From contig CM060732.1 in the NCBI GenBank assembly GCA_030704615.1, positions 82,460,001 through 82,524,000 on the forward strand: 64,000 nucleotides of DNA. Direction: 5' to 3'. A program made the translations under genes and the position numbers. Source of the stretch: Takakia lepidozioides (Eukaryota; Plantae; Bryophyta). The notes under the pieces were generated by a model, which saw only the letters and a list, made by a program, of their open reading frames with translations, searched no databases and was not told where the DNA came from. Shown piece after piece: positions 1,471 to 59,935 of the stretch (the stretch's first letter is position 1; every line of letters starts with the position of its first letter).

Positions 1471-1613
1471 TAAAGATCATCTTGATTCATGTTCACCTAC
1501 CATGCATTCGGCCATGCCGACCTTGACTTCTTGTCTAGTTTTGTACCTCTAGTCTGATCACTTGTTTGTGTTCTGTCATGTTCTCGTCCAAGTTTGTTCG
1601 TTAGTTAGTTAAG

Positions 1614-2655
1614 ATGGAAGGCACATTTGCAGAAATGGTCGCCACATTGCAGAGTCTTCAGCTCCAGATGCAAGAACTTCGTACCTCTACCACCCAATTG
1701 CAAGCTGATCAGTCTCAAGATCTTGGCAACGCTCTTCACAATTTGCAACAACAAATTTCAGAGTTAAAGGAGTCGAACAATGGATCTTCAACCATACAAG
1801 TCCCTACTGCAACAACTCCTACTGCAATGGTTCCTCTTCAACAGATTACGAGAGAACCAAAGATTAGCATGCCCGAGAAATTTAATGGGACGAGATTAAG
1901 ATTTCGCGGTTTTGTTCAACAAGTACGACTGTTCCTACGACTACATCCACAACGCTATCCCGATGAAGGTATTCAGGTGGGATTCGTGGGCACCCTTCTG
2001 TCAGGCACTGCCCTATCTTGGTTTGCACCGCTATTAGAAAAAAAAATCGCATTTACTATACAATTTTGAAGCATTCATGTCCGAGTTCACTGCAACGTTT
2101 GGAGAAAATGATAGAGAGAGAGTTGCAGAAACAAAGATGCGAAATCTTCGACAAGGAGCACGTCCTGCTTCCGTTTATGTTGCCGAATTTCGACAACTTG
2201 CGTGCGACCTCAACTGGAATGAGAAGAGCCTTATTAGTCAGTTTCGATGTGCACTAAAAGATGATGTAAAAGATTTGTTGCTAACAATGCCAAACGTGAG
2301 CACACTGAGTGAATTCATCACCCAAGTCATTGCATGCGATAATCGTTTGTTCGAAAGACGTCAAGAGAAGCGATCTGGATGGTTTACAACGCATCATGCC
2401 ACTGCTACTACGACACCAAACACAACGATCCATCAGACATCCAGTAGTGATCTTATGCAGATTGATGTTGTCCGATTCAAGCCATTGACATCACAAGAAA
2501 AACAAAGACGGCGCTCGAATAGATTATGCCTCTATTGCGGAGAAGAAGATCACATAGCATTAAACTGCCCCAACAAGAGAAGATTCAAAGCTCGGGGCAC
2601 AACTCAAGTGTTTGATACGAGGAGGTCAGAAAACGAAGATGTCCAGTCACAGTAG
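1614..2655 (+). pseudogene. Gypsy gag (frameshift at A-run ~2040)
   Basis: REPKISMPEKFNG...ALSWF...LRQGARPASVYVAEFRQLACDLNW and a CCHC knuckle CLYCGEEDHIALNC. Confidence 0.9.
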
Positions 2656-2660
2656 GGACC

Positions 2661-3264
2661 ATGTGGCTGGACACCACAAATTCCTTTCCGAAAAAATGTC
2701 TCTTTCTACCTCCAGACCCTGCACCTTGCTTCACAGTTCTGGTAAAAATCAGAGTGCAAAATCGAGATATGACTGTAGAAGCACTTTTGGACTCAGGAGC
2801 TTCAGCTTGTTTCATAGACAAAAACTTTGCGAAGCAAAACAATTTAACGCTCGTAAAGAAGAAACTCGCGGCCCCCGTTGAAGTTATCGATGGACGACCA
2901 TTAACATCAAAAAATGTGGACCATGAAACTCGACCACTTGAAGTGAAGCTTAAAGATCAAGCATTACATATTGTTTTCAATATCATCCAGTCTCCAACGA
3001 ATCATGTGATCCTTGGACTTCCCTGGTTCATACTTCACAATCCCGACATCGACTGGCGATCGCGAAAAATTTCTACAAGACAAAAATGTAGAAATATCAA
3101 AGGTATTCACTCTGTTCCTTGGAGCTAGAGCTTTCATGAGAGCTATAAAAAAAGAGGTGACATTTGCACTTTATGCGACTCCGATCAAGACCACAACAGA
3201 CAAAGGTACTTCAACATTACCCACTCAATATCAAGATTTCAAAGATGTCTTCGAGAAGAAAAAT
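2661..3264 (+). pseudogene. Gypsy aspartic protease and start of RT
   Basis: ALLDSGASACFID...VILGLPWFILHNPDIDW, followed by LPTQYQDFKDVFEKKN. Confidence 0.9.
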
Positions 3265-5317
3265 AATCCCCTCCAGAAATTTGATATGAACTATGGTCCT
3301 CAATCAGATACGATGTCCTTCGGGAGTCCATGAATGCGGTAGATATTATTGAGGAAGAGTCTTGCAGTTTCCTCGCCGGTAACCGTTTTATTACATGGAA
3401 TGAAATGTGTCATCTTCGTAAAACGATCTACAATAACAAGGATTGAATCGGTGGTCTTGGAAATTGGAAGGTCCGTAATAAAGTCCATAGACACGGACGA
3501 CCATGGACCTTTGGGAATAGGTAATGGTTGAAAAAGGCCGTAAGGTCGATGTCGTGGTCCCTTCACTCTAGCACACGTGTCGCAAGATTTTATAAATTCG
3601 TTCACGAGTTTCCACATTTGCGGCCACCAATAGTCCCTGGATATCAACTCCAATATTTTGTTGAAGCCGAAATGTCCTGCAGCCGGAAGATCATGACATG
3701 TTTGAAGAATTCGAAGTCGTGTAGGTCCTGGAGGTACATAGAGAGGTCCCTTGAAGTAAAGTAAGCCATCTATGAATTCGAAGTCGTTTGTAACATGTGG
3801 GTTGTCTCGAGGTTGATTTAGTTGACTTCGTAGTGTCGTAGCAAAATGGTTGCTCTTCAGTGCTTCCTGAATCTCCTTTATGATCTCTGCATCGTCATAG
3901 GTGGACATTGATAGCATATTCAATTGGAGATTTGTTGGTTTCAAAATGATGGATTTTTGTTGGTCAAAAGCTGCATCCCTTTCTTTTGGCGCAAGATACG
4001 ATCGTCCAGAGAGAGTATCTGGTTTTCCTTGAAGATGTCCAGGATGGTAGGTAATAACAAAATCAAACCTTGCTAGTGACATACTCCATCTCGCTTGACG
4101 TCGATTCAAAACACGAGCACTCATAAAATATTCGAGATTTTTGTGATCGGTATAGACAGTGATCTGATGTTTAGCTCCCTCCAATAGATAACGTCACTCC
4201 TCAAAAACATCGATAATCGCTACAAGTTCTTTGTCATGGATTTCATAATTGATCTCCGCAGCGGAAAATTTGCGAGAACGAAAACCAACAGGATGGAGTC
4301 GGCCATCTGTACCGTATTGAGAAAGTACCGCGCCAAGTGCAAAGTCCGATGCATCTGCTTCTAAGAAGAATGGTTTAGATGGGTCTGCATGTACCAGTAT
4401 GGGAGCCGTTGTAAATGCCTGCTTCAGCCTTTCAAATGTCTGGTCAGCCTTCTCGTTCCATACAAATTTGTCCTTCCCTGTGAGTCGTGTCAATGGTGCA
4501 GCAATTTTGGAGTAGTCATTGATGAAGATTCTATAGAAATTTGCAAAGCCCAGAAAATATTGTACATCTCGGACCGAAGTTGGTTTAATCCACTCGATGA
4601 TGGTTTGTATTTTCTTCTGATCCATGAAGACGCCTTTGTCGGAAATAATGTAGCCCAGAAATTCGACCTCAGATTGATAGAAAAAATATTTCTCCAACTT
4701 GGCATATAGTCATTTTTCTCTTAATTTATTAAAGATAAGGCGTACATGGCGGCCATGTTCTTCTTCATTCTGTGAAAAATCAAAATGTCGTCCAAATAGA
4801 TGACTACAAAGTCATCTAAAAATTCTTGAAAGATGTCATTCATCATATGTTGGAAAATTGCTGGAGCATTTGTAAGACCGAAAGGCATAACACTGTATTC
4901 AAAATGTCCATAACTTGTTCGAAAAGTTGTTTTCCATTCGTCTCCTTCTTTTATCCGTATAAGGTTATAAGCTCCTCTCAAGTTGATTTTGGTGAAAATC
5001 TTCGCTCGTCCCAGCTGGTCGAGAAGCCCAGAAATCAGCGGCAACGGATAACGATTCTTGATTGTGACTTTGTTGAGACCGCGATAGTCGCGACACATGC
5101 GTAATGATCCATCATTCTTTTTCACAAACAATATAGGCGCCCCCGCGGGTGATTTTGTATATCGGATGAAGTGCTTCGACAAATTTTCATCAATGTATTC
5201 ACGTAATGCAGCCAACTCCATCTGGGATAAGTTATAGATTGGGCCGAATGGTGGTTGGGCTCCTTCTTATAACTCAATTGCACAGTCATAAGGTCGATGT
5301 TTTGGCAATATGTTTAC
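3265..5317 (-). pseudogene. Inverted pol segment (RT-RNase H-integrase N-terminal part)
   Basis: The minus strand reads [13 protein letters not shown]...DYRGLNK...PFGLTNAPA...YLDD...ADASDFALGAVL...TDHKNL...GHFG...MDFITDLP...SD; the flanking domains are on the plus strand. Confidence 0.92.
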
Positions 5318-5485
5318 ATATTGGATATTAAGATCAACCTCTTTACAGCTAATCATCCACAGACTGATGGTCAAACCGAACGTGTAAACCAGATTTTGGA
5401 GCAATATCTTCGTTGTATGATAAATTATCACCAAGATAATTGGACAGACCTTCTGTCATTGGCTGAGTTTGCCTACAACAACACT
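5318..5485 (+). pseudogene. Integrase core continuation after the inversion
   Basis: [32 protein letters not shown]...LAEFAYNN. Confidence 0.88.
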
Positions 5486-5486
5486 T

Positions 5487-5625
5487 GGAGCGACTTTGAC
5501 ATGGTATTGCCAATGTGACAACAAGGAAGTATCCAGAAACAGATAACAGCTGAGACGAGGAGAAGCTGTGGAATGAATACTTTTTTGACCCCAGTCAATG
5601 GTGGGACAACCGAGGCAAAAACTTC
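5487..5625 (+). pseudogene. Fragment of OSB-type PDF motif (WWDNR) gene
   Basis: EEKLWNEYFFDPSQWWDNRGK at 5557-5619; DNA-level homology to 22480-22615 on the minus strand. Confidence 0.7.
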
Positions 5626-6060
5626 ATGAACTTAAGGCATGAGTGGCTGATTGTTTCATTTTGAACCTGATATGCTTTGAGCCTGGTTCCGGAGATTTAT
5701 CTCCAGACCTGCAATCTGCTTTTGTGATGAGTTTACAATCTACATATATGGTGGTAAATGTTATATATCAAACCAAGGTTCTTTCCTAAATGTGAATGAC
5801 CTAGAAACCTTGTTAGAAAGATGAATGGCTTACGAATTGGACTATGTATGGCTTGACCCATGGATTAAATTTCAAAGGGTTAGAACATGTGTTAGGGTTT
5901 TAATACTGAATGGATGTGGGACATTGCTAGGGCGCCAGAGCATGACATTCCATGCATTTACGCCATTGGATGCCAAACTTTTTTTGGCACGTTGGACCAA
6001 GGTTTGTATGCGTTCACGAACTGCCGACCTTGCTCGTTGCCCGGTTGACCTTATTTTCCA

Positions 6061-6476
6061 TGTCATGGTTTTAGTCATGGTTATCTAGAATTACCTACTT
6101 CTAGTTAACTAGGACATTTTAGATATTTATATTTATACTTTGTGTGTTGGGACTTCATTTGGTCTCACATGCCAAGTGAGGTGTCGAGCCTCACTTGAGA
6201 CATGGAGATAGGTTTTCCCCTTGTGAGTGTTGAGGAGGCTCATCTTCTTGTAGTTGAGCCTCCATGAGCTTCTCTCACCTCCATAGCTCTAGGTATTGAG
6301 AGGGAGTGTGTTGAGGGCTTTGTAGGATTCATTTAGCAAAGGTGCCCTTGGCTTGACTTAGTTTATGTGATAGAGTGGATTTCACTTGGAAGGACTAGGG
6401 CTTGTTCTTCATGTGATTGCTTCATGCTTTGAGAGCTTTCATTGTCTTCTACTTCTCTCATTTCTCATCTCTTATC
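6061..6476 (+). repeat. Terminal repeat A, copy 1 (~416 bp)
   Basis: Near-identical to 16613-17032; I see about two substitutions and one small indel. Confidence 0.95.
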
Positions 6477-7784
6477 ACTATAAGAAGATCACCTTATGCT
6501 TGTGAGTGCGGAGTGTAAGGATTAGTTTTGCACTTGTATTTTAAAGAGGTTGAGAGCTAGGAGAATTTAGCTCTTGTATCACAAGGCTTGCAAGGGGTTG
6601 CAAGGAAAGGTGCTCGAGTATTGCATGCACCAAGGAGTTGGAGAGCTTGAGAAGAAAGCTCTTGAGTCACAAGATTTTGCAAGGACTGTAAGGAGGAAGT
6701 CTTGTGTGTGTGGAAGCATGGATTCTAGGGTTTGAGAATCCTTTGTATGCATTATGGAGTCGATGGTGTGCGCCATGGCTTGTGGAGAGTGACTAAAGAC
6801 TTGTTAGTGCTCATTTCACTATCAAGCTAGGGTTAAGCAAGTTCAAAGTGTGGATGTTGTGGAAGAGAAGCCAAAGAGCTATATATGCTTGGGCTTGAAG
6901 ACAACAAAGGCAAGCACTTGGAGAGCACTAAGAAGCTCAAGAGGTTTTGAAAGGGAGCATGTGAAGAAATCTTCCAATCATGGTGGTGTGGAGCCAAGCT
7001 TAGGGTGCCATTGGAAGGGCTTGGAGAACATGTGGTGGGAAATCCTTGAAGGGAAATCATCATTCAATGTATGCATAGCTTCACCCTAACTATGTAATGT
7101 GACAAGAGGGGGAGGCAATACTTGGCTATTCATGCTCTGGTAGTGCGAGCTTTGTGGTGGATAGTTGACCAAGCAAGTGGTGCATGTGTGGAGCATGCTC
7201 GCTTGAGTTTGTAAGTTCAAGTTTGAGAAGGGGAGCTCTTGAACTAGCAAGAGGTGAAGGCCTTTGAGATCCATTTGTGTGTGAAGTGGAGAGGTGTTGA
7301 TTCATGTTATGATGAAGGAGAGCAACACATAGGCCAAGAGGTCATGAAATATGCATTCAAATGACCACGGAGAGCACATGGATGATGGATTGGTGCAAGA
7401 CCCAAATGAGGCATATGGCGTGAGAGTGGGATCCAAGGCGGATTGCTTGGGAGCATTATTGTAAGTGACAAGCATTGCTCCTACACATTGAGATAATTTG
7501 TGTTGATTTGGAGCAATTGTCAAGTGATGAGGAGACAAATGCATGATTGCTCGGCAATGGATATATGGTAGTTTGCAATCAAATCCCAAGGACTAGAAGG
7601 GGGATTGATTTGGTGGACAATGACTTGCAAGTTGAGTTGGACCACTCTTGGTTGCACATTGGGGTGGAAGAGAGCAAGAAGATGCCTCTTATGACCACCT
7701 AGAGACCATATTTTTGCTTGAGTAGAAGCATAGAAGTCAAGGACTTGCATTCTAGCTCTTCATTACAAACCCTAGTAGTGTATG

Positions 7785-8180
7785 CTCAGACTATACCTCT
7801 GTTAGTATACCAAACAGGAGCTTGTCCCTTTGACTATACCTCTCTTGAGGTATCACCATATGTGAACCCTAATGTGAGACTATACCTCTGTTAGTATACC
7901 AAACAGGAGCTTGTCCATTTTACTATACCTCTATTGAGGTATCACCATATGTGAACCCTAATCAGCTCAGACTATACCTCTATTAGTATACTAAACAAGA
8001 GCTTGTCCCTTTTACTATACCTCTGTTGAGGTATCACCATATGTGGACCCTAATCAGCTCAGACTATACCTCTGTTAGTATACCAAACAGAACCCTCATT
8101 TTCAGACTATACCTCTGTAAAGGTATCATCAACATTAGGGACCCTAGCAACCTCAGACTATACCTCTGTTAAGGTATCAA
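7785..8180 (+). repeat. Tandem array of CTATACCTCT-led hairpin units (43-51 bp spacing, ~90 bp higher-order unit)
   Basis: CTATACCTCT at about 7791, 7834, 7880, 7923, 7972, 8015, 8064, 8107 and 8158; alternate units form ATACCTC-N4-GAGGTAT stems. Confidence 0.9.
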
Positions 8181-8204
8181 CAGTGAAAGGACTTAGTGAA
8201 ATTT

Positions 8205-8335
8205 AAGGGCCTTTGGAGGATTGTTTGGAAGATATTTGAGGGCCCTTGGAGGAGTATTTGGAGGATCTTTGGGGTCCTTGGAGGAGTGTTTGGAGGATCT
8301 TTGGGGTCCTTGGAGGACCCTTCGAGGAGCTTTGG
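8205..8335 (+). repeat. Short TTGGAGGA-based tandem repeats
   Basis: CTTGGAGGAGT(A/G)TTTGGAGGATCTTTGGGGTC twice, plus partial copies. Confidence 0.8.
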
Positions 8336-8993
8336 TGGACAATGTTGAAGAGCTCTTGAAGGATTGATTGAGGGATATTGAAGGATACTTGCCACGGCCA
8401 TACAAGCGAGTGGATAGAGACAGGAGGGAGAGTGGTGGGATGAGAGCATTCTGGGGTTAGGAATTGCTTTAGTTTCTCTTCTCCATAGTCTTTCACCCTC
8501 TCTGTAGGCCAAACCTTTCCGTAGGTGGAGGCAAGAGTCAGTCCGGGTTTGGGCTGGGGTGTCGTTGCAGGAGCGACACTGTGGAGTGTTTTTGGTGTGG
8601 GGAGAGTTGCTGTCTTGATTTTCTTGTGTTTGGATCCCCTCCACACCTGCATGCTTGACTGTGCGCCATGTTAGCTTTGTGTGGGCGCTTGTTTTCATAG
8701 GAGGTTGGTCCGGATTTGATCACCGGCCAATCCTAGAGTATGCTGTCGGTGGTGAGGCTGGAGTGATGACCAGCAAGACCACCAGTGTTTCTTCTATGGT
8801 GAGGCTGGGTTGATGACCAGTAGACCATAGGAGTGCTTGCGGTGGATGCAGGTGCAGTACAGGTCTATGTTAGAAACCTATTATTTCTGCTTGAACCAGT
8901 AGCCGCAACAGGTTCTTTATCCGGTTACCTTGTAGAAAGTGGGGATTAGAGACAGGTTGACAACCGGTTGGGTTGTGAGTTTTCATCACGGAG

Positions 8994-10787
8994 GTGCCAC
9001 CAGCTGCTGAGGGGAGTGCCGGTACAAGCACCAGCGATACTAGTGGGTACACAAGACAAGGTGTGCGGTTTAGGCCACTTTCACCTTCAGTGTCTTCTGA
9101 GGAAGGTTCAGACTCGGAGTCAGGAGGATTCTCGCCAGGGTGCAAGTCATTTCCGTGCCATTGTTGTGGGACACGATGGAGGAGATGTATGGAGCTACCA
9201 AGGGGCCACGTAGGTACTCTGGAGCTGTGGGCACCATCGAGCTTGATGACTTTATACAAGAGTTTGACAGTTGGTGTGATTTGCAGCAAATGCGCAATCC
9301 ACAACTGTTTACGCCCTTTATGGTGTGGAAGGGGCTATTCCAGCACCTTGAGGGGCCGCCCATGGATGATTACCATGAATTTAGGCGGGAGATTGAGGAG
9401 TGGCAAGAGTATTGGTCACCTAACTATGTCTCAATCACTAGAGGCACAAGGGCAGCGGTGACACCAGCAGCTACACAAACATCTCCAACTACAAGCACTA
9501 GTAGTGGAACAAGTAGTGCCGACACTTCTGCAGGTGGTACCAGTTCAAAAGGTGTTACTACTCCTCCTGCCACAATTACAACACATGTGCCTAGATTTAA
9601 CCCGGTGGTGGAGTTCTTCCAGGAGTTGCGGAGGAACTACCAAGGTGTACGGACAGAGAAGCTGCGAAGTTTGCAAGACTTCCAGCGCAAATCCAGTGAG
9701 AGCTTGCGAGAGGCCTACACTCGTATGAGGCGCTTGATAAGTGTGACCCAAGGGGTTACTGAAGCTCAGGCAGTCCAGTTCTGGTATGGAATTTTGGACA
9801 AGGAGCTCAAGAGAAGGGTGCGGGATGCAACCCTGTTACAAGCGGCCCAACCCACATTAGCGGATGTGTTTTGCTGGCTGAGCGGATTGAGCTCAACATG
9901 GTGGAGGAGCGAGTTGTTACCATTGGATTTGGCAAGGACATGCCTGCACGAGGTGCAGCTGCCAGCCAACAGATACAAGGGACTGCCCAACAGCGTGGTC
10001 AGGGGGCAAGATTGCCCAACCCAAGTTCCATGGAGCTTACAGGGGACCTCAGGTGCAGAGGCCCGTGGCATCTTTTGCAGGCCAACAACAACCAGGGGTG
10101 ATATGTTGGACATGTGGAGGACCCCATGTCAAGAGAGATTGCCCAGAGAGTGGCAGAAGGCCGGCACAAGCACAGCCTGCACAGTTGCAGTGTGGGCATT
10201 GTGGTAAGTATGGGCATGGAGATGCCCAGTGTTATGACTTGCACCCTGAGTTGCGCCCAGGCCAGTTCCAAGGGAACAATGGTGGCCGGGGGCGAGGTGG
10301 ACCAGCCCAGAGAGGACGAGGTGGTCGGGCACGAGGTGCAGGCCAAGGGCAAGCTCAACATGGCCAAGGACGCGGAGGTCAGGGTGTTGACCAAGACATG
10401 GCCAACCGGCTTCAGCAGCTAGAGCAGAGGCTCGCTGCCATGGCTACAGCTCAGGTGGTACCGGCTCCCAGGCGGGATGGTCCACCTCCTGCTCCTGAGG
10501 GAGGAGATATGGGAGGCATGGGATTCATGTGCGGAGCAGCACTACCACTAGTGCAGGTGGAGTCTGCTGCAGCCGTGACTCGAGGAGCATCACGAGTTCC
10601 TGAGCCACGAGGTGCAGAGGTGAAATTGGATCCACAGCGTGGGGAGGCAAGCCGTCAGGCGAGGCTTCCTCAGTCATTCACATTGGCGGAGACAGTGTCG
10701 ACGCCATCCATGGCACCTAGTTCTCGCCCGACTGTTACCGAGGCGGAGGTTACTATGCCATTGGGAGAGCTACACGTGCAGCACTGA
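8994..10787 (+). pseudogene. Gypsy gag with two CCHC zinc knuckles and an RGG-rich region (frameshifted)
   Basis: YSG...LDDFIQEFDSWC...LQDFQRKSSESLREAYTRMRRL...QFWYGI; CWTCGGPHVKRDC and CGHCGKYGHGDAQC; GRGRGG tracts. Confidence 0.85.
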
Positions 10788-10842
10788 CACCTGCTACCAA
10801 GGCTAGTGCAGCCGGTGTGTTATTGGGGGCAGCCACCTCTGT

Positions 10843-11733
10843 GTGTCAAGCCCACTGTTCTCGGCAACCATGATTGCGACGCCGGGGGTAAGACCAGCTG
10901 CAGTGTTCAGACTAGCAGCAACACTCTGCGAGAGTGGGGAGGTCACTTCATCTTCTGCGGAGTTACTAGAAGGTCTAGTGGTAGAGGGATCCTCGGATTT
11001 GAGGGTCAAGACTGCCACGGCTACGCCATGGCAAGCTGCAGCTGCCAGGTTGACGGAGCTGCCAGCTAGGCCAGCCTTTGAGCGCGCCATGGTGACACCT
11101 GGAGTTGTCTTGTTAGACAACCAGGGAGGCATTTTCACTTTGAGTGGACCGGCAGGCAAGAAGTACCGGCCACTGCGGGTCTTGTTGGACTCAGGAGCTC
11201 AGCCACTGATGTTGGGCAGAGCTGCTATTGCAGGTTTGGGCCTCATGGAGGCGGATATGGAGCCTTGTCCTTTCCAGATACAGACATCTCTGGGAGGATC
11301 AGAGCAGGCTCGGGGCATGACACGATGTGAGTTGGCCATTGGACTACAACCAGATCATCCTGTAGATGGCTCAGTGATGCGAGCCAAGGCCATTGTGACA
11401 GACGCGGTCTCTTACGATGTCCTTGTTGGTGGGGCAGTGTTATATCCCATGGGCTTCAACCTGGACTTTTGGGAGGAATCGGCATCCTACAGGCCTGGAT
11501 GGCAGTCAGGGGATGGTCGTCGTGCACATCTCCCTGTGACATTCATTGGGGGTATTGCGGCTGCCCAGCGGGGCAAGATGCCAACACTAGCCGCCTTTAC
11601 AGCTGTAGTTAGTTGGCTTGGAGAGTTGCTGGAAGGCAATGCCCATGCAAAGGATGTGCCACCTCCAGCAGAGCAGGATGACATGCATGGTACGGCGGAG
11701 TTGCCTGCCATGGTTGCTCACACTCCATTATAG
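10843..11733 (+). pseudogene. Retropepsin-like aspartic protease region
   Basis: LRVLLDSGAQPLMLG...SYDVLVGGAVL. Confidence 0.85.
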
Positions 11734-11901
11734 GGTACGAGCAAGGATTTGCAGCAGGCTGCTGATGGACGGGTACAACAAGCCTGGGTAGAGGCCTTCG
11801 TACCGTCAGGAGAAGAGGAGAGTGCGGTGATTGCACCAGGACCACCTCAGTTGTCGCCATTGGACACCACACCTCTTGTGTGGCAGTGCCCGGATGAAGG
11901 C

Positions 11902-12840
11902 ATATGCCTTCTGGACTTGTTTGGCGGGATCAGCACTGGATTGCAGGCAGGTGTACGAGTTCGACGTTACTTGTATGTGGAGAGGGATGAGACTGCACGA
12001 CGCGTCTCACTGCGCCATGTTGCTCAGTTGGTACAGCAGTACCCTGATTTGTTGCCAGTGTCTGCAGTTCGTGGATACCAACAAGCCTTGCCAACAGACA
12101 TTTCGTTGCTGGGGGCGCAGGATTTGGAGCGGGTTGGCTCCATTGATTTGGTAGTGGCAAGTTGGCCCTGCCAAGGGCATTCATCAGCCGGGCATGGCAA
12201 TGGATTGCGAGACTCGAGGACGGGTCTGTGTTTGGGGAGATGGTGCGGATTTTGCGCCACTTGCAGCTTCATCAAGCTGTATCTCCAGCATACATCTTGG
12301 AGAATGTGCCACTGATGGGTGATTCTCGGGCCAGGGTGATGGCCAGTGTGCATCAAGTCCGGTCGTGGCTTGGGTCAGCAGTGTTGCTGGATGCAGCTGC
12401 AGTGGGGTCATGGGCTCATCGTCCACGGCTATGGTGGACTAACTTGATGCCACCCGCACTGCTCAAGCGTGCATTTGATGGGGTGCAGCGGCCAACACAC
12501 CTCACAGTGGATAGCATTTTGGACACAAGGAGGCAGTCTCAATGTGTGAGACACGATGACCGTTCGCCTTTGGCAGTGGTCAACAGGGTGGGTCAACCAC
12601 GAGCAACATTACCTACACTGCTCAGCTTCCCAGGATCCCATGCTTTTCGGGATGGTGACCTGGCCTCTTGTGGGATAGCCAGTTGCAACAATTAGTGGAG
12701 CCCAATGCTGACGAGCGCGAGCGGGCGATGGGTTTTACCACAGGTACCACGGCGGTGCCATCTCTTTCTGAGGCATCACGTCGTCAGGTGTTGGGGCAAG
12801 CAATGGATCTCAATTGCTTGACCTGGATTATCAGCTTGGC
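11902..12840 (+). pseudogene. DNA (cytosine-5)-methyltransferase domain, DNMT3-like, inside pol (two frameshifts)
   Basis: Motif I LDLFGGIST, II YLYVERD, IV DLVVASWPCQGHS, VI YILENV, VIII AHRPRLWWTN, IX ERERAMGF, X RRQVLGQAMD, all in canonical (non-permuted) order. Confidence 0.92.
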
Positions 12841-13267
12841 TATGGCTGAGCAGCGCAGAGTACGGAGTACACTTCCCTTCATGGTCTCCCTGCCTACCGA
12901 GACGGTACAAACAACGAGTGGGGGCGAGCAGGTGAGGACCACGAGGTGCAGGCCGCATCCATGGCACACGTGGGAGGTGCTCGAGGTTCAGAAGGAGTTG
13001 GCAGCCAAGGCGGCGGTGATGGATCAGGTTGGGGATTTTTCTCGGATTGAGGAGGTCCTCAAGGATGGGATGATGGGGCAGGATGAGACATTGTCACTGA
13101 CAGAGGAGGCAGTGGTCACTGCTCAAGAGGTTGCAGCATAGCAACCACGGGACGCGTCTTCTACCTCTAAGCCTGCTGGACTCAAGGTTGCAGTCACGGA
13201 GGACAACTGGGAGCCTGATGTTGGACCTATAGTCACCGGAGGAGAGAGACGACGTATACGGCGGTTC

Positions 13268-14771
13268 TTGAGGGCTTACAGGAACTGCTTTGCCTTCAGT
13301 TTGAAGGACTTAGGAGCACTGAAGGGTCAAGAGATTCGCATTGAATTGGCTACTGACACGCCAATCTTTCGGAGACCCTATAGATACAGTGACATGGAGA
13401 GGTCCTTGATTCAGATGAGAACTCAGGACCTTTGGGAGGCTGGTTTGGTGGAGCTATCTGGGGAGAGTATGCTTCAGCCACAGTGATGCCAGCCAAGAAG
13501 GATGTCTTTGGCAATTGGACGGAGAGACGTATGTGCGGTGATTACCGGCCTGTAAATCGTCAGACCAAGTCCGATAGGTATGCCATGCCAACACCAGAGG
13601 AGATCTTTGATGCCATTGGGCATGCCAAGGTCTTTAGCACGTTGGATTTACGATCCGGATATCACCAGTTGCCGATCAAGGAGGCGGATAAGCAAAAGAC
13701 GGCATTCTGGGGGATCAATGAGCACGGGAAGGATTGCCTATACCAGTGGCGGTTCTTACCATTTGGGCTTAAGAACGCTCCGGCAGAGTTTCAGAGAGTC
13801 ATGGACATGATTCTAGCAGGGGTGGAGTTTGCTCGGTGCTACATAGATGACATCATCATCTTTAGTGCTACGGTGGAAGAGCATGAGAGACACCTTCAGG
13901 GGTATTTGAGCGCTTGAGGGCGCACGGATTGAAGTTACATCCGGGAAAGTGCAAGTTTTTCCACAACCAGATTGAGTATCTGGGTCACATGATATATCCT
14001 GGAGGATTGGGGGTACAGCAGACTAAGGTAGAGTCCATTGCACAGGTTCCACGCCCCACGGATGTGAGCCGAGTTCGAGCTTTCATGGGGTTAGCAAACT
14101 ATTATAGACGGTTTGTTAAGGGATTTAGTGCCATTGCAAAGGCTCTAACCAAGCTGACCAAGGTGGACCAGGAGTGGCAGTGGGAAGATGAGCAAGAACA
14201 AGCTTTTCAAGAGCTCAAGGCGAGGTTGACCTCGGCGCCCATCTTGAGACGACCTATCAGGGGGCGTCCTTTTCAGCTGCATACAGATTGGAGCATGTTG
14301 GGGCTTGGAGCGGTGCTCACACAGGTGGATGATGAGGGAAGAGAGTTCGTAGTGGCTTATGCTAGCCGCTCGAATAACGTTGCAGAGTCTAAGTATAGCT
14401 CATATGAGGGAGAATGCTTAGCTGCAGTGTGGGCCGTGGCACACTTCAGGTGCTATCTATACGGCAATCTCTTCACCCTTGTCACGGATCACCAACCACT
14501 CAAGTGGTTGATGGAGTCAGACAAGCTTACGGGGAAGCTTGCACGGTGGGCACTCATCCTTCAAGAGTATGACTTTCAGGTGGTGCATCGACCGGGTTTG
14601 GTCAATCGCAATGCAGATGGGTTGAGTCGCAATCCATGCACGAGCCAGCAGGATGACACTGGAGCTCGGTGGCATGGTGAGACGGACGAGGAGATGGTGC
14701 CCGGATGGCATGCATCTGCATTTCTGTGTATCTTGGCAGCGGAAGGCCAGTTGGACCTGCAACAGGGATGA
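13268..14771 (+). pseudogene. Gypsy reverse transcriptase and RNase H (frameshifted)
   Basis: RMCGDYRPVN, LDLRSGYHQL, PFGLKNAPAEFQ, YIDD, HTDWS...GAVL, TDHQPL, NADGLSR. Confidence 0.95.
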
Positions 14772-14789
14772 CTGTAGATCAAGTGTCTG

Positions 14790-16268
14790 AGGACCCTGAG
14801 GCCAGCAATGAGCAAGGTGGCGCCAAAGATATACATGAGGATTCAGTTGTGTTGGACTACCTCCGCACTGGAGACACTGCAGCCACTGTGACTGCCAAGG
14901 AGAGGGATCGGATCCTACAACGAGCCAAGAGGTTCAAGTGGGAGGGGACACACCTGCTCCGAGTGTGGGAGGATGGTCGAGTGAGGATTGTGCCTCACCC
15001 AACACAGCGGGCACGGTTAGTGCGGCATGCCCATGAGGAGTTGGGGCATTTTGGGGTGCGACGCACTCATAGTCTACTGCAGGGGCAGTATTGGTGGCGT
15101 GGTATGCACACAGAGGTGCAACAATTTGTGGCTAGGTGCATGGTGTGTGACAGGGTGCGTGCTTCATTCAACGCCCCTACTCCACAATTGCACCCTCTTC
15201 CGATCATGGGATTGGGCTACAGGTGGAGTCTTGACTTCGCAGGGCCGTTGCCACTGACTATGCGCCACAACAAGTACGTGTTGGTGATGGTGGAGCACTT
15301 CTCCAAGTGGATTGAATTGGTTCCATTGCCTGATAAGGCTAGTGAGGGAGCTGCGTATGCATTCTTGGATTGTGTGCTTAGCCGATTCGGTGCTCCAGCT
15401 GAGGTACTCACGGACCAAGGGAGAGAGTTCTTGGGGGAGTTTCAGGCTTTGTGTGACAAGGCCTTGATAGACCACCGCACCACTTCTCGGGATCATCTTG
15501 AGGCCGATGGCTTGGCAGAGAGAGTTGTTCAGACAGAGGGGTTTGCGCAAGTATGGCTTGCAGAAGGGACACCTAAGAGATTGGGACCTTCAGTTACCCT
15601 GGTTAGCCATGGGCTACAGGTTCAGCAAACAAGCATCACTTGCCTCCTTCTCACCATACTTTCTTCTCTTTGGCCGAGAGCCGGATTTGCCTACATCCAT
15701 TCGCAGAGAAGTTGCTACAGTTCTTAACCTTGACGATCCGGACGTGTGGGCACGTGCATGTGAGCATCGTGCAGAGTTGTTCAAGAAAGTCATGCCCATG
15801 GCTTTCGAGAACCTTGTCATTGCACAACATCGTGATACGTTGAGGTATGCTACCATACGTAGTGGGGGCTATCGTCCTGGGGTTCGGAGATTCAACCCTG
15901 GTGACTATGTTTATCTGCAGCAGACTGCTCCTACGACCTTGGATGTGACTGCAGGACGTACTATTTTGAGGGTTCGAGAGGTGTTGCCCTCAGGAGTTCT
16001 GATCTTGGAGGGTCGGGATGGCATGATTTGGAAGGACCATGTGCGTAATTGCGCGCCATGTCACCTTCCAAATGTTGATGGAAGGGTTGACCCAAACCTG
16101 ACAGTGATACCTGCAAGTTTGAGGTGCATGTTGTGTGGGTCTGCTAGAGGGGCAGCCACCATGCTGGTGTGTGATCAATGCTCTAGAGGTTGGCATATGG
16201 GATGCTTGACTCCACCTCTTGAGATGGTTCATGATGGGGATTGGTTATGTCCGCATTGCATTGGATAG
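14790..16268 (+). pseudogene. DDE integrase with C-terminal PHD finger
   Basis: HHCC (HEELGHFG...CMVC), SLDFAGP, TDQG, AER; C4HC3 finger CMLC...CDQCSRGWHMGCLTPPL...WLCPHC at 16125-16259. Confidence 0.93.
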
Positions 16269-16514
16269 TGGGAGTGGATACAACCATGGAAGGCTAACAA
16301 GAAACGCAAGGCCAAGCTACTAGGAGACCAACACACGAGATCCTGACTCAAGTTCACAGATTGCAAGACGGCAACTAACGATGGGGTTGCTCTTGTACTC
16401 AGCCTCTTGGTCTATAGAGTATGAGTACAATAGGGACAGTGATAGAGGACTTAGTACGGCTATGGCTATTACATCTTGTAGCTATCTGGAGTTAGAGGGA
16501 CCTAACCACCAGCT

Positions 16515-16521
16515 AGGGGGG
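16515..16521 (+). promoter_or_regulatory. Short polypurine tract (candidate plus-strand primer)
   Basis: AGGGGGG followed by CAAT and then TG starting repeat B1. Confidence 0.55.
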
Positions 16522-16525
16522 CAAT

Positions 16526-16610
16526 TGTGGTATAGCTTTCTAGGATTGTGTGCTTAGATTGTGTGGTGGACAACGATGTATGTTGTGGCACGATGCATAG
16601 GTGCACGACA
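16526..16610 (+). repeat. Terminal repeat B, copy 1 (85 bp, TG...CA)
   Basis: TGTGGTATAGCTTTCTAGG...GGTGCACGACA; matches 17036-17119 with about three differences. Confidence 0.93.
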
Positions 16611-16612
16611 AC

Positions 16613-17032
16613 TGTCATGGTTTTAGTCATGGTTATCTAGAATTACCTACTTCTAGTTAACTAGGACATTTTAGATATTTATATTTATATTTTGTGTGTT
16701 GGGACTTCATTTGGTCTCACATGCCAAGTGAGGTGTCGAGCCTCACTTGAGACATGGAGATAGGTTTTCCCCTTGTGAGTGTTGAGGAGGCTCATCTTCT
16801 TGTAGTTGAGCCTCCATGAGCTTCTCTCACCTCCATAGCTCTAGGTATTGAGAGGGAGTGTGTTGAGGGCTTTGTAAGGTGGATTCCTTTAGCAAAGGTG
16901 CCCTTGGCTTGACTTAGTTTATGTGATAGAGTGGATTTCACTTGGAAGGACTAGGGCTTGTTCTTCATGTGATTGCTTCATGCTTTGAGAGCTTTCATTG
17001 TCTTCTACTTCTCTCATTTCTCATCTCTTATC
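16613..17032 (+). repeat. Terminal repeat A, copy 2
   Basis: Matches 6061-6476; joined to B1 by CA-ac-TG. Confidence 0.95.
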
Positions 17033-17035
17033 TAT

Positions 17036-17119
17036 TGTGTATAGCTTTCTAGGATTGTGTGCTTAGATTGTGTGGTGGACAGCGATGTATGTTGTGGCAC
17101 GATGCTTAGGTGCACGACA
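17036..17119 (+). repeat. Terminal repeat B, copy 2 (right end of the element)
   Basis: Ends GCACGACA, followed directly by TCCA (TSD). Confidence 0.93.
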
Positions 17120-17643
17120 TCCATAATTGCTAACTTTGTGGGGTGGAAGGGCTTGTGTTAGGCTGCATCAAAGCGCACAAAGGAAGGGGGGACTGAGGCT
17201 GTGGCGAATGCTACTGGTCCACCTACGACATGGGTGCAACAAGGCCCGAATGGCCCATGGGTGCAATCCAGAGGTGGGCAAACGTGGTTGCACCAAGGAC
17301 CACCTACCTGGCAGCAGCCCATGGCCCAAGATACCATCTCTGCCCTGTGAGGTAGTTGCAAACTGTCACTACAGTCATGCCTCTGTAAACGCCCCAATTG
17401 TTTGGATGAATAGGGGCTAATTTTTTTTTTGTTGTGGCCCTGGCAGAAGAAAGAGAGAGCACGAAGTCCAAGCATCACTGAGCAAGCACATGCATCGAAG
17501 GCGGACAAGGGTTTTGGCTCCCAGTCAATTGGAGGTGCACATGTAAATGGCGTATGGGTATTTTTTTTTTTGGTTGCATTCATTTTGCTGGAGCAGTAGC
17601 CAGGCTAGGCGGACTGATTTTGTCTCTTTCTTTGGCTCTATAG

Positions 17644-21349: not shown

Positions 21350-22615
21350 CGTCACCCATTCACAATCTCCAAAGCCTCCCTGCCATACCCAGTACATAAA
21401 CAGAGTACACATAAGTTCCTCGCTTTGCATCCTCAATGCACCCACATTTGGCATACATGTCCACCAGGGCAGTGTTCAGAATGACATCTGATACAATTCC
21501 AGCTTTCGCGATGCAAGCATGTACTTCTTTGCCCTTTTCCCGGGCTGCCAGGCTTGCATATGCATTGCAAATGCACACACACGTGATGTGGTTGGGCTTC
21601 ACCCCTTCCCCCCCCCCATTATTTGATCATAGGTCTCCAAAGCCACCATCCCACATCCCTGCTGTGCATACCCTGCAAGCACCGCGTGCCACGACACCAC
21701 ATCTTGTTCAGCCATAGTGTTGAAAACTCCCTTCGCATCCTCAATGCACCCACATTTGGCATACATGTCCACCGAGGGCAGTGTTCAGAATGGCATCTGG
21801 TACAATTCCAGCTTTGACGATGTCACCATGGACCTCTTTCCCCTTTTCCAGAGCTCCCAGGCTTGCACACGCATTGCAAACACAAACAAATGTAATGTGG
21901 TTGGGCTTCACCCCATCGTGCATCATTTGCTCATAGGTCTCCAAAGCATTCCTACCACACCCATGCTTGGTAAATCCTGCCAACATTATATTCCACGTGA
22001 TCAAAGATCGATCGTTGAGGCATTCGGTTGAACACTTGGTGAGCATCCATGATGCTCCCGCACTAAACATATACATGTTGACAAGGGTGTTGAGGAGAAA
22101 AACACTTGGCGTGAATCCACTTTGGATCTTGTTGTAGAAGCTGTGGTCATGGTTGAGGTGCCTGATTTTATCAACTGTGCCGCTGCAGCAGCTGCCTTTA
22201 CATGACCATCTACCCATGCAGGTTTCTTTTAACTATAGATCCACAGGGAATCATAGGTAATCTTGTGCTTGAAATCTGGCCTTCTTGGATGAATCTGGAC
22301 TCACACTCTATCCCTGCTCCTTCACCTATCACTACCTCTGCACAAATCATGCCTACTTCCTTGCCTTGCAGCTGATAATGACAGCCTAGATTTGTTCTAG
22401 GAAACACCCAACTCAGCTTATCACACTAGTTCCTATGCTGAATTGCGTCTGCTACTCTCTGTAATCCAACAGGCATTACCTTTTTGCCTTGGTTGTCCCA
22501 CCATTGACTGCAGTCAGAAAAGTATTCATTCCACAGCTACTCCTCAATTCTGTTACGTGTTTTTTGATACTTTCCTGTTGTAACGTTGGCAGTATCATGT
22601 CAGAGTGACCTATCA
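21350..22615 (-). pseudogene. PDF(OSB)-motif plus PLS-PPR gene, degraded
   Basis: Exon LWNEYFSDCSQWWDNQGKK, GT-AG intron 22479-22295, exon IHPRRPDFKHKITYDSLWI...KPAWV, then PPR repeats (NTLVNMY, ITWNIMLAGF, GVKPNHITFVCVCNACASLGALEKGKEVH, TALVDMYAKCG). Confidence 0.8.
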
Positions 22616-22812
22616 AAGATTCACTCAACCAACTAACTTGCATAATTCAACATGGAATTTTAGGGAAAACTCCCGTGGATAATTTTGCAAAATTCTGCCT
22701 GAGAAGCAATCACATTGTGGCTAAATGGATGAACATGTCACTTTTCAAGCCCCCGCCCATTTCTTTTGGATGTAGGATTTTTGGGCGATGGGATTTCTCC
22801 AATGCAAAAACC

Positions 22813-23077
22813 ACCGCTTGCTTAGTTTGTGCCCTTATCACCAAGTATTTCTCAGTGCAAAATTTCACCACTGCTTAGTTTGTGCCCATATCACCAAATA
22901 TTTCTCAGTGCGAAATTCACCGCTGCTTAGTTTGTGCCCATATCACCAAATATTTCTCAGTGCGAAATTCACCGCTGCTTAGTTTGTGCCCATATCACCA
23001 AGTATTTCTCAGTGCGAAATTCACAGCTGCTTAGTTTGTGCCCATATCACTAAGTATTTCTCAATGTGAAATTCACT
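22813..23077 (+). repeat. 52-bp tandem repeat, 5 copies
   Basis: Unit ACCGCTGCTTAGTTTGTGCCCATATCACCAA(G/A)TATTTCTCAGTGCGAAATTC at about 22813, 22867, 22919, 22971 and 23023. Confidence 0.95.
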
Positions 23078-24994
23078 ACCGCCACTACAGGTTTAAGGTT
23101 TTTGGCTACACTACTGAAAGTTTCGCCTCACTGAATTGGCGCAAATGTACTGTACAAATGCACCAGTCCTCTATACTCGCTTATGGTTTTATTCTGTTTT
23201 GAAAACATATAACTCCTATGACCGAGGTTTAAAAACATAAAACTCCCATGACCGTGGATTGTGCTCACGCGAGCCTGCTCATGTGAGCATGCACACGCTG
23301 TGATCACAGGATACCAACCCCCCGTGTGATCCAATAGAAAAAGGGAGCAAGTAATTAATTGTTTTAGCAATTTTGTGTGTGGTCCAATAGGAAAAAACGC
23401 CCATGTGGGCATAAACCATAAACCACCCTGTGAGGCGGATAGAAACCGGGTAGGGTGCGGGTATCGTTAGAGGCTTGGGTTCAAGATAGGGTCCGGCTTG
23501 GGTAGGACGCAACTAAATACCTCACCAATAGGGCCCAGGTCAGGGTGTCATGCAATTGGCGGGCCACGTTATATACCTGGACCCTGATATACCCCCTTGG
23601 TAGGGTATATATTATACCCGCCCCTATACCCGCCCAACATTGGTTCACATCCTGCTTCCTGGTTGGGTGTGGTATGATCATATGATCTTCTCCCTACTTC
23701 CCTTGAGTCCAAGCCTGTGATTTTCTCCTCTAACTTTAAAAAAAAATGGAATTATGAGGATTGAGATAGCAATGGGAGAGAGATGGAGCGCTCCATGGTT
23801 TGCGGTGAGAGAGGCCAACGGCTCCATCGTCCCGCTCGTTCGGCTCGTTTACTCCGCACGCGTACTCGGCTCCACCTTCACACAGTTCTTTTCAAGAGTA
23901 ACAAAGCACATAGTCCTCTCGCTTTCAACCGAGGAATCCTTGGAAGGTCTCAATCTTAAAACTTAACTCTTCTCAAGCCAAGTTAGGTACAAAGCGACTG
24001 TCTAAGGCTCAGGATGGTTTCTCCGGCCTGATCCAAAGCCTGACATTTGGTGTGATCTCCTCATCATAACTGGGATCATCACCCGGTCCTAGGCATCTCA
24101 GCCCCGTACCTCGTGCATCATTTTGTGCCATCATAAACCCTTACCCTCCCCTGGATGTCTCTCCAAGACGCTCGTCCCTCAACAGTTTGCCCGACGAATC
24201 TCACCTTATTCATCCTCCAAGTAGGCTTGATAACCTGTGCTGAATTTATGCTCTAATCCCCTCCCCTTAATGATCAGCCGCCATAATCCTAAGACCCTCT
24301 CCCATTTTTCCTTTATCAACAAACTCCATCCAATCAGCTCCCTCCTCCTGCCATCTATGTTATGATCACTGGCAAACTCTGGCCTTGGATAACTAATAGC
24401 CGTCACACTCACTAAAGTCACCCCCCGACCTCCCACTGCAGCTGCTCCAGCCTCGAAGGCCACTGTCTATCTCCAGCTGCTTCCCGCTTCCGACTCAGCT
24501 GTTTACGGATCTCTCTCTCATCAGCGCGCCTCTTTGCTCCCTCACATCGGCTGCTCTCTTGGTTCGAGCTCGCGTTATCTCTCCTTCAGTCTCTCTTGTC
24601 TGCTCCAAAATACCCATGGCTCCCCTTCTCAACAAATCCCTCAAGTCTGCTCCCACCAGATCGGGACCACCCAGATTTTACGATCCAAGTCATCTCCACC
24701 CCTCTACTGGGACAGGCTTCTTCTTAGCACACCAATCTCACTCTTTGGGCCTCACATCGCCGAGAAATGCAAGCCAATCCGGGTCTACAATGCCAGGACC
24801 AGCAGGGGAACGTACTCGGCCCCAGCAAACATGATTCACGATTACATGAACTCCAAGCTCTCCAATTAAACCCCCAGCCAGCCCGCCATCTGATCCTTTT
24901 GAAGGGCCATTCTACGACTTGGCAGCTCTGCAGCTGGCCATGAGTAAGGACAACCCACACATCCCCATTGAGGCGCTTTATCAAGTGAATTCTA

Positions 24995-27372
24995 ATGTTG
25001 CACATTGAGAGCAAGGGAGTCCTACTACACTTCCCTGGCAAAAAAGTGCGCAGATCCCAAGCACGAGATTGGGCCATTCGGCATCTTGGTGGGTCGGGAG
25101 ACCTTCGGCATCATTTCTGCCATCCGAGGGGTCGGGGATTCTTCTCCATCCTATTTGACTCTACAGAAGCAGCTGATAAAGCCTTCGGATTCAATCCTCA
25201 TCACATGGGTACAATGTCAACATCTTCCCTTGGTCCAAGAATATGGGCAACAAAAATGGCAAAATTTGGAGCCCTCAGATCATCACGCTCCCCTATATCC
25301 CAGATCAACATATGTTCTCACTTCCAGAGATTGGTAACTTTTTTGGAGCGTATTTGGAATGTTTGGCGGTCTTTGACCCCAATATGTGCACGGCTTCTTT
25401 AAAGGAAATTCCAGCTTGGAGGAGAACTACTATTGCATCAAGAGCTCATGAAGATGGTTTTGCCAAAATTGTGGTGGTTATGCCTCATGACAAGGTCCTG
25501 CCAGAATTCATTAACCTGCCAATAGACGATCAAGGCAACTTCTTTTCAGTCAAAGTATATGAAGACGCTGCCTCTTCGGCTTGTTATTATTGTGGGCAGT
25601 CTGGTCACCTCAGGGCAGCTTGCCCATTAGCCAAAAGGAAAAGAATGGACATTAATCAAGCAATGCATGGGCAGTCAACCCTTATGCAAAATTTTGTTCC
25701 TATTCCAAACCCCCACCCAGCGGACCTACACTTCAACACACACCCCCAAGAGAAAACCAACCCTCTATCAGGGCAGGACTTGTACAACAAAGAATGGGTC
25801 TTGGACATCAAACAGGTCTCATCATCCCCACCCGCCAAGAGAAAGAAGGAGACATTTGACCCCATGATCCTGGAAGCTGTCTGTGGTCTGCGGACAATTT
25901 GCAAACGGGCAAGGTACTAATCAACTGGGAGCGTGAGGCCACGAGCATCTAAATCTCGTCTTCAACAAGGATCGTCAAGGCACAACCTGCTCTAGCCCCT
26001 CTCCCAATTCCAGACATGATAAGATGGGAGATGGAAGCTGCAAAAAACAAGCTGCAAAAAACAAGGGGAAGGTCAACCCCAACATTCTCAAGAGGCCACC
26101 AGTGGAACATAAACCCACTCCCACTCCCCGCTCCTCCCCTGTGGCGCACAACCCAGAAATTGCAGCATTCTGTGCCAAGCTTGGATCCTTCCCCAACTTG
26201 GCTTTAAAAGGATGCTCACTTCTCAGTTCCAGGAGGGACCCGGTGGCCACTTGTCTCACTCCCATGATTTTCAGAAGGAAACCGGCTCCTGCTTTCCTGA
26301 TCACGGCTAGAGACAACATGAATTTTGAATCCATCTGGATTTCTGTACAGGACATTCACACCTTTTTGTCCAAGAGACCTATGGATAGCAGTCCCATTCC
26401 CACTATGTGCACCAAGATTCAGGTTTTTTCTCTCTCCAATTTTCCACTCTTCTCTCTCCTCTCCCACTCAGCAGTCACTTGGGGTTCGTACACTGAATCC
26501 TTCCCAGGTTTGCATCCACACCTTACCCACAACACCAATATCCTTGCTCTCATGGATGAAGCTGACCTCCTCAACACTAGTGGCACCACGCCAGGAGTCT
26601 GGGCGGAACTGGACCACTTCCAAGAATCCTACATCCCCAGCAAGGCGTTAACCAGATCCTATGACAACTTGCACAATGCCTTTACAGTGCTACACACTAT
26701 CCTTGAAACGGAGAGGCATGAGGAGAATGAAGAAATTGAAAGGCAGCGCATGGCCGGACTTCATCAATCCGACATACGACCCTTTTGGTTCCCTCTCAAC
26801 ATCCAGCTCCTCCGACCTGCAGATCTCACAGTTCTTGTCGCAACCTCTGACCTCCTCCCAGCCTCCTTTCGAGCCCTCGTTGCCCCCCTCTCCTTGCAAC
26901 TCAGCTGCCTTCTCCAACACCTGCTCCAATCTCTCCTCCCCTTATTTTTGTAAGTCCACCCCCTCCACCGCAATCAATTCCTGTTCTTATTTTTTCTCTC
27001 AACCTTGCTCTGGCCAATAGATGTTCTATTCTTTGCCTTCACACGGATATCTCCCCCGGGCCATTCAAAGGTAAAAAGTGGAAAATTCTACCGTCCATTC
27101 CCTACCCTTCTTCCTTCCACGACCTCACCTCAATCCATGGCTCTGGTAACCTTACCATCCAAACCCCAGTCTCCATAAAAACAAGGCTTCACAAGACTGA
27201 CAGGTTCATACCTCTTGATTGCTCCGGTGCCCAACTTTTTCACCTGACTAGTACCCTGGTCATGTATGTTCAGCTCAAGGACCCCATTCACGAATCCCCC
27301 CGATACCACCTCTGGTCCCCTTCCCTTCTGCCCTCAGACAAAAGAACCAAATATTTCCAGGCCATCAAATGA
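24995..27372 (+). pseudogene. LINE ORF1 (RRM-like region, CCHC knuckle, long unknown C-terminal part)
   Basis: GRGFFSILFDS (DUF4283-like), CYYCGQSGHLRAAC; coding-like frames continue to TGA at ~27372. Confidence 0.65.
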
Positions 27373-27404
27373 GTCTTCAGCCCTCAGCCTGTCCTCCACC
27401 ACCA

Positions 27405-59690: not shown

Positions 59691-59935
59691 AAAAGACGTC
59701 CACCTTCATTGCCGGACCACGTCAATAGGTGACCGGTCACCATATTCATATTAGGGAACCATGAACTTTTGGGTTCTATTGCAGTTTGGGTTGGCGGCGT
59801 TCAAAAAAGACATAGACCATTGTTGTCGTACCAAGTCAATAAGTGAAAGATTACCACAATTGAATTAGCAAACCATGAACTTTCGGGCTCTATTGCCATT
59901 TTGGTTGGTGGTGTTCAAAATTGAAAGACATAGAC

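Follow-up and report, generated by a model that had tools for sequence, protein, structure and literature searches.

A 64,000-nucleotide stretch of the genome of the bryophyte Takakia lepidozioides (GenBank assembly GCA_030704615.1, contig CM060732.1, positions 82,460,001 to 82,524,000 of the forward strand; hereafter the window) contains, at 6061–17119, a single Ty3/Gypsy insertion that carries a DNMT3-like C5-cytosine methyltransferase (MTase). Repeat and domain analysis, together with comparison to relatives, places the MTase at the end of the Gag–protease (PR) frame, followed by an in-frame stop codon and a second frame for reverse transcriptase (RT), RNase H (RH), integrase (IN) and a PHD finger, and this order (Gag-PR-MTase, stop, RT-RH-IN-PHD) is conserved across the family. 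We propose, and give about an even chance, that the conserved MTase would be packed into the particle in amounts like those of Gag and would methylate the element's own cDNA before integration. Occasional readthrough of the stop would yield RT-RH-IN-PHD and leave the MTase outnumbering RT and integrase, the protease would free the MTase inside the particle, and the new copy would arrive already methylated, blending into silent chromatin.

The Pfam domains lie in the order gag, aspartic protease, PF00145, RT, RNase H, integrase and PHD finger, all on the forward strand. Gag, with zinc-knuckle-like and RGG-rich parts, occupies 9176–10800, the protease (LLDSGA) 11113–11535, the MTase 11896–12856, RT and RNase H 13465–14639, and the integrase (HHCC zinc finger, rve core and C-terminal part) 14981–16100, with the C4HC3 PHD finger at its end (16113–16268). 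An earlier reading made from the letters alone (the sequence-only reading) had placed the MTase within pol, between protease and RT. A stop at 13139–13141 lies between MTase and RT, however, and splits the MTase from the RT–integrase frame, so that the MTase ends the Gag-PR frame. Relatives came from a metagenome scan, which gave 289, 80 of them being kept and fetched as loci (L-numbers below); several of these are one genomic copy assembled twice, 35 rows falling to 30 at a 97% cut. PR-MTase-RT order is kept in 33 of the 40 loci with enough flanking DNA, a count from loci selected by their MTase in a search unable to find relatives that lack it; in the other seven, one neighboring domain is not within 2.5 kb.

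At the position of the window's stop, TAG or TAA followed by CAR is found in 44 of the 48 loci that span the region; in three of the remaining four the stop is there but the codon behind it is changed, and the last lacks the stop. Locus L073 has both frames open and in one phase, 1369 codons for Gag-PR-MTase and, past the stop, 1047 codons for RT-RH-IN-PHD, and 21 of 23 long predicted proteins contain motif X, end 84–188 residues past it and have no RT. The window's stop stands in a readthrough-type context, TAG CAA CCA (13139–13147), and no variants at 8% or more were seen at these bases in four sequencing runs in which neighboring bases vary. Behind the stop, the next six bases read CAACCA in the window and L053, CAATCA in L072 and L081, and CAGTTA in L073 and L077; in different spellings, all three match the readthrough motif of tobacco mosaic virus, UAG-CAR-YYA (PMC3542737; this and the other published sources are cited from the parts available to us). 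The stop is likely to be read through, and the MTase hence made at the level of Gag, not of pol.

All the motifs quoted by the sequence-only reading for a full C5-MTase, in canonical order from I to X, are present: LDLFGG, and WPCQ in the frame ending at 12315; ENV and HRPRLWWTN in the frame 12147–12695; and ERERAMGF and RRQVLGQA in the frame 12659–13141. For motif VIII the word HRPR is there, although in this copy the full word reads W-AHRPR. The Pfam search that had been suggested matched PF00145 (C5 DNA methylase) at E 7e-5 on one MTase fragment. The window's fragments alone matched no relative of solved structure. When the intact Calypogeia relative P0009 and a nine-row family profile were compared with solved structures, DNMT3A/B/C ranked first (E 1e-17), DRM second (3e-8 to 3e-5, over the motif I–V part only) and HaeIII/HhaI third (2e-6 to 1e-5). 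Only positions 2–126 of the family profile align with DRM, opposite the distal end of the DRM chain, and the permutation of plant DRM is not present. These results bear out the earlier assignment to an unpermuted DNMT3 type rather than to DRM, and the alignments place the DNMT3A words given by the sequence-only reading opposite those of the element. We call the MTase DNMT3-like on score ranking and motif order, host DNMT3 lying outside the trees described below. Host DNMT3s, such as animal DNMT3A/B and moss PpDNMT3 (PMC6453930), match the catalytic domain best in both sequence and fold and have the same canonical motif order, whereas the element's MTase is only ~25–29% identical to them, has an insertion after motif II and a longer target-recognition region, lacks PWWP and ADD domains and introns, and sits in a polyprotein.

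The MTase is a trait of the family. The middle MTase fragment retrieved 34 protein matches, those with a named source belonging to Marchantia, Calypogeia and Sphagnum, in agreement with the earlier suggestion of a land-plant representative, and several annotated Marchantia "DNA methyltransferase" genes are the Gag-PR-MTase frame of this element type, the Marchantia protein Mp4g09160 being one naturally intact relative. The family is very large and high-copy: 87,791 contig records in the run best matching the window match the element, MTase included, a figure that is not a copy number. One run guessed to be RNA has a related copy, which we do not take as evidence of expression, and no relatives encoded on viral contigs were found. 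The catalytic Cys, the ENV Glu and RxR are conserved in nine of nine aligned family rows, bar one Cys change, and the motif IV Cys is found in 135 of 148 distant representatives.

Ratios of nonsynonymous to synonymous substitution rates (dN/dS), computed with our own Nei-Gojobori script, agree with the expectation that the MTase is under selection. For the MTase the ratio is 0.12 between L073 and L077 at an unsaturated dS of 0.26, 0.10–0.12 for L072 against L073 and L077, and 0.17–0.20 for L053 against the peat-moss-type group; for RT it is 0.04 between L072 and L073. An RT ratio of 0.46 for L073 and L077 was discarded, as the L077 slice is incomplete. Within the decayed peat-moss-type group the MTase ratio averages 0.59, with 0.90 for the closest pair, 1.3 for singletons and 0.6–0.7 for variants common to several copies. 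Purifying selection thus stands out clearly when lineages are compared but is weak within the set of dead copies.

Beyond these loci, a profile search of 1.84 billion representatives found 391 clusters (50% identity) at E 1e-30 or better; names were looked up for 30 clusters only, and the members are mostly unnamed. The commonest complete layout among the best 148 new clusters is RT-RH-MTase-IN-PHD (29 complete), in which RNase H and integrase flank the MTase. This sister clade (proteins P0055–P0061 and P0105–P0252) has named members in the chlorophytes Scenedesmus sp. PABB004 and Haematococcus lacustris, whereas in Closterium the MTase lies before RT. We found no report of a chlorophyte Gypsy-DNMT3 in the literature searched. 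The MTase and RT trees that had been proposed group the same MTase-before-RT elements, which fall on one side of a single marked branch in 12 of 13 rows (MTase) and 13 of 13 rows (RT); each tree splits the two layouts, one long-branch row shifting in the MTase tree, where the window falls in a marked clade with liverwort and peat-moss-type elements. These trees have one unnamed Gypsy from the window as outgroup, with neither named reference elements nor a tested root. The pattern would fit one old capture of the MTase and one domain move, in either direction.

The same data bear on a simpler account, in which a host DNMT3 fragment was captured once, or a bacterial or phage MTase inserted, and is decaying neutrally in an ordinary Gypsy element. 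Such an account would draw on the two breaks in the window's MTase and on the near-neutral ratios of young decayed copies. It is refuted by the family: the layout is common to the 80 loci and to named liverwort, peat moss and Closterium relatives, and the domain recurs in the 391 clusters. Neither a target-site duplication nor an inverted repeat was found around the MTase in the window, which argues against a separate insertion, and phage MTases are only 23–28% alike. The sole close match in a prokaryote genome, L081, is a contig of 9 kb, binned with a cyanobacterial genome, that holds a whole retrotransposon of this family, in which two long frames are open and the stop is conserved; a bacterial origin based on this bin was rejected, and the contig is likely a mis-binned plant or algal one. 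None of the three outcomes that the sequence-only reading had listed as refuting it was observed, in a locus search that began from the MTase. We regard the simpler account as extremely improbable.

Several observations, to which the ratios within the decayed group belong, sit uneasily with an active enzyme made at the level of Gag. In 37 of 44 cases in the peat-moss-type group the stop is followed by CAA-CCC-ATG, a sequence that departs from the readthrough consensus at its final base and might instead allow re-initiation. In six predicted proteins that branch more deeply, including one from Closterium, the MTase is continuous with RT and no stop intervenes, so the stop characterizes the branch to which the bryophyte elements belong; since the large sister clade also has its MTase inside pol, production at the level of Gag cannot be essential everywhere. 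AlphaFold gave a poor model (mean pLDDT 49.5), the best Foldseek match of this low-confidence model, DNMT3A (E 1e-9, TM 0.36), being weak. Finally, the enzyme of the algal relative KnitGypsy-Dnmt3 from Klebsormidium produced no methylation in yeast, a result that its authors call inconclusive (PMC5890265).

That last result would also suit a domain that does not methylate DNA and is kept for something else: it might bind or methylate the packaged RNA, for example, or protect the ends of the cDNA and the att junction. Amounts like those of Gag would fit a structural or nucleic-acid-coating role, and in 59 of the 148 distant members WEC replaces PC in motif IV. Against this, the S-adenosylmethionine-binding motif I, the catalytic Cys, ENV and RxR are kept across deep branches, and in the same yeast assay human DNMT3B likewise failed, whereas SymbioDIRS-Dnmt3 enzymes methylated CG de novo (PMC5890265). 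We judge such a role rather unlikely, and prefer methylation of the cDNA.

The PHD finger (PF00628, E 3e-10) terminates the integrase, with no chromodomain in its place, and its best matches are PHDs of the CHD4, KDM5A/B PHD1, ATXR5, BHC80 and AIRE types. PHDs of the CHD4, KDM5 PHD1, BHC80 and AIRE types are readers of histone H3 unmethylated at lysine 4 (H3K4), as is the ADD domain of animal DNMT3. In our model the finger would guide integration to chromatin with unmethylated H3K4. It also invites a different placing of the enzyme: the MTase could be active in the nucleus, brought in with the pre-integration complex and tethered by the PHD finger, and methylate the target site along with the new copy, or other copies in trans. 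MTase and PHD finger occur together in both architectures, and in the sister clade the MTase adjoins the integrase; here, on the other hand, the stop and RT-RH separate the frame segment with the MTase from integrase and PHD finger. Nuclear action is an alternative that we take seriously but hold to be improbable, and we continue with methylation inside the particle.

How would such a cDNA integrate? The element has the Gag-PR-RT-RH-IN order and DDE-type integrase of Gypsy elements, TG...CA ends, a 4-bp target duplication (TCCA at 6057–6060 and again at 17120–17123), a primer-binding site for a self-primer and a polypurine tract. In place of the two complete, identical terminal long terminal repeats (LTRs) of a Gypsy element, its repeats are split as A...B-A-B, and because these can be read as a permuted LTR we file it as a Gypsy-derived variant. 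Repeat A1 (6061–6477, from TGTCATG to CA; putatively the 3′ part of U3 with R-U5) opens the element. At the other end, the polypurine tract AGGGGGG (16515–16521; kept in related loci) is followed by B1 (16524–16610, ending in CACGACA; putatively the 5′ part of U3), two bases, A2 (16613–17032) and B2 (17034–17119), which forms the right end, again CACGACA. The direct repeats are 98.6% alike for A (6061–6476 against 16613–17032) and 96.6% for B. Between B1 and A2, the near-palindrome CACGACA-nn-TGTCATG (16604–16619), whose halves match the element's two ends, is a predicted cutting site for the integrase.

The arrangement recurs in relatives. Among 18 loci with the polypurine tract and B, A follows B in six and one reaches the contig end; full B-A-B ends are present in L010, L036, L056, L067 and L076. 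Between the start of A and the end of B, the 4-bp duplication is perfect in six of eight elements and agrees in three of four letters in the other two. The joint between A-end and B-start is present in all four runs compared, loose ends at B-end and A-start were seen in the run of a second organism, and the B/A junction CACGACA-nn-TGTCA(T/C)G is kept even where the MTase is only 49% identical.

Directly behind A1, the primer-binding site (6478–6489) lacks the TGG start of a tRNA-type site. The 11–16 bases at this place instead pair with a stretch inside A: in the window, 6242–6253, a predicted self-primer at the transcript's 5′ end, forms 12 consecutive pairs with the site (one G:U), and L073, in which the sequence is a third one, has 16 pairs. 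At least 11 such pairs are found in 9 of 20 peat-moss-type 5′ repeats, against 55 of 4200 shuffles, and the sequences differ among three lineages with compensatory changes. This covariation predicts self-priming in the manner of Tf1 and Tj1, Ty3/Gypsy elements with that arrangement (PMC4600332, PMC6317226), in which the first 11–12 bases of the transcript would prime reverse transcription. TATA-like words lie ~26–33 nt upstream of the primer in two other lineages. The lowest-energy RNA fold of 6230–6500 lacks the primer pairing (z -0.5); the primer there forms part of a local hairpin that lies 5′ of the predicted start, so that the fold neither supports nor refutes the pairing.

On the simplest reading, the polypurine tract would prime the plus strand to give a linear cDNA with an ordinary LTR of B+A, the cDNA ends would join into a circle, and the integrase would open the circle at the CA-nn-TG palindrome inside the LTR, leaving the observed A...B-A-B layout with its 4-bp duplication. 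Three results speak against this scheme. No TATA word was found upstream of the window's own primer; 11 of the 18 loci with the polypurine tract and B stop at B, without A2-B2; and the A-B-A...B insertions that a circle should also produce were not seen, none of 20 5′ A repeats being preceded by B, although collapse of the longer repeat in assembly could have hidden them. The elements that end at the first B with a 4-bp duplication (L015, L021, L030, L055, L079 and others) may be products of one-LTR circles, of B-B recombination or of assembly collapse. At 13282–13570 of L039 and 5531–5819 of L040, ~11 bases of the primer-binding site remain at the joint of A and B, the outcome to be expected when cDNA ends join before the self-primer has been removed.

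The closest described system is KnitGypsy-Dnmt3 of Klebsormidium nitens, published in 2018 from a genome in which 33 DNMT genes were counted (PMC5890265). It too has the Gypsy domain set, an unpermuted Dnmt3-type MTase with the key residues and under purifying selection (Ka/Ks <0.2 there, 0.10–0.20 between lineages here), and DIRS-like A-coding-B-A-B repeats despite a Gypsy-type integrase. Its MTase was placed in the Pol ORF; here the MTase precedes the conserved stop, and in deeper relatives it is continuous with RT. A land-plant host and very high copy number set the present element apart. The available part of that description does not mention self-priming, an att junction, a 4-bp duplication or a PHD finger, and none of the 30 clusters looked up bears the name K. 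nitens. The present element likely works like KnitGypsy-Dnmt3 and belongs to the same lineage. SymbioDIRS-Dnmt3 of Symbiodinium shares the A-coding-B-A-B repeats and a Dnmt3-type domain but uses a tyrosine recombinase (PMC5890265), in contrast to the DDE-type integrase, TG...CA ends and target duplication here.

Other relatives share single features. DIRS and Ngaro elements have split direct repeats as well, with a tyrosine recombinase and no known target duplication, in contrast to the rve integrase and 4-bp duplication here. Self-priming, predicted here from sequence, is found in Tf1, Tj1 and the plant Tcn1 clade (PMC4600332, PMC6317226), from which this element differs in its PHD finger in place of a chromodomain, its added MTase and its permuted split-repeat integration. 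The EpiLTRs of Cymbomonas and Euglena likewise combine an LTR element, a cytosine MTase and a chromatin reader, but their DNMT is sister to DNMT4 and accompanied by a DAM domain and a chromodomain, and their authors consider them distinct from streptophyte Gypsy-DNMT3 (bioRxiv 10.64898/2026.05.21.726589). Later papers of the KnitGypsy-Dnmt3 group mention retrotransposon DNMT3s in "streptophytes", citing the 2018 work in the parts available to us. In the literature searched, which lay outside subscription journals, Repbase, figures and bioRxiv supplements, we found no report of a land-plant Gypsy-DNMT3 and, beyond PMC5890265, none of an integrase-bearing element whose repeats are split. To the published kind the present analysis adds a host among land plants, the MTase before a conserved leaky-type stop, the split-repeat replication model, the PHD finger and the chlorophyte sister clade; the split repeats, the self-priming signal and the PHD finger do not figure in the sequence-only reading.

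Taken together, these features would allow an ancient green-lineage Gypsy clade, spanning chlorophytes, mosses and liverworts with sub-families in the hundreds, that combines a capsid-level MTase, self-methylated cDNA, circle integration and PHD targeting to H3K4-unmethylated chromatin; we offer the whole of this picture tentatively, as possible though doubtful. If it is true, a transposon has rebuilt the logic of DNMT3 plus histone reader in order to arrive pre-silenced, and at such copy number it may have left its mark on the methylomes of bryophytes. What DNMTs do in retrotransposons has been an open question since 2018, partly owing to hosts that are hard to work with, and becomes testable because the lineage is present in the genetic model Marchantia polymorpha, for which methylomes and met1 mutants exist. 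With a stop between MTase and RT, each particle is predicted to hold the enzyme in large excess, and the split repeats would give a sequence-level account of how DIRS-like ends arise from a Gypsy integrase. For annotation, finders that need two terminal LTRs will miss or mis-bound such elements, which also inflate DNMT gene counts in bryophyte genomes.

The window's own copy is dead. The two frameshifts reported by the sequence-only reading in the MTase (~12228 and ~12656) are real, but comparison with intact relatives gives eight frame changes, the others lying in gag (~9870–10000 and ~10760–10850), RT (~13460 and ~13899) and integrase (~14750–14830 and ~15534), plus a premature stop upstream of the MTase (11731–11733). 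As contigs of other copies differ at these break points, most of the decay is specific to the one in the window. This copy cannot make the enzyme and was probably moved by the proteins of intact copies. Despite the eight coding frame changes, its terminal repeats have diverged by only 4 substitutions and 2 indels over ~500 bp; either the copy was mobilized in trans after decay or the frame changes are partly assembly errors. CpG depletion (0.48–0.55 in the coding part against 0.42–0.73 in the flanks) is uninformative. The long 5′ leader contains about four 92-bp tandem units (7788–8171).

Elsewhere in the window, fragments of a second, MTase-free Gypsy element, found in both orientations, adjoin the insertion on its left (1605–5520), and a decayed LINE-like element with zinc knuckle, RT and zf-RVT lies at 25180–31500 (+). 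An intronless AVT6E-type amino-acid transporter gene is at 43873–45294 (-); its best named matches are from Sphagnum (69%) and Ceratodon (68%), then a lycophyte (63%) and Marchantia (62%), a ranking that points to a likely moss host distinct from those two mosses, and part of its region is repeated ~9.7 kb downstream (54806–55964). Open frames encode an expansin-like protein (41897–42436, +), a longin-domain protein (57645–58286, -) and a PPR-repeat protein (21744–22232, -), the last with inverted look-alikes at 519–971. Tandem arrays with units of ~52, 130 and 115–120 bp occupy 22809–23120, 40372–40691 and 59244–61147, respectively.

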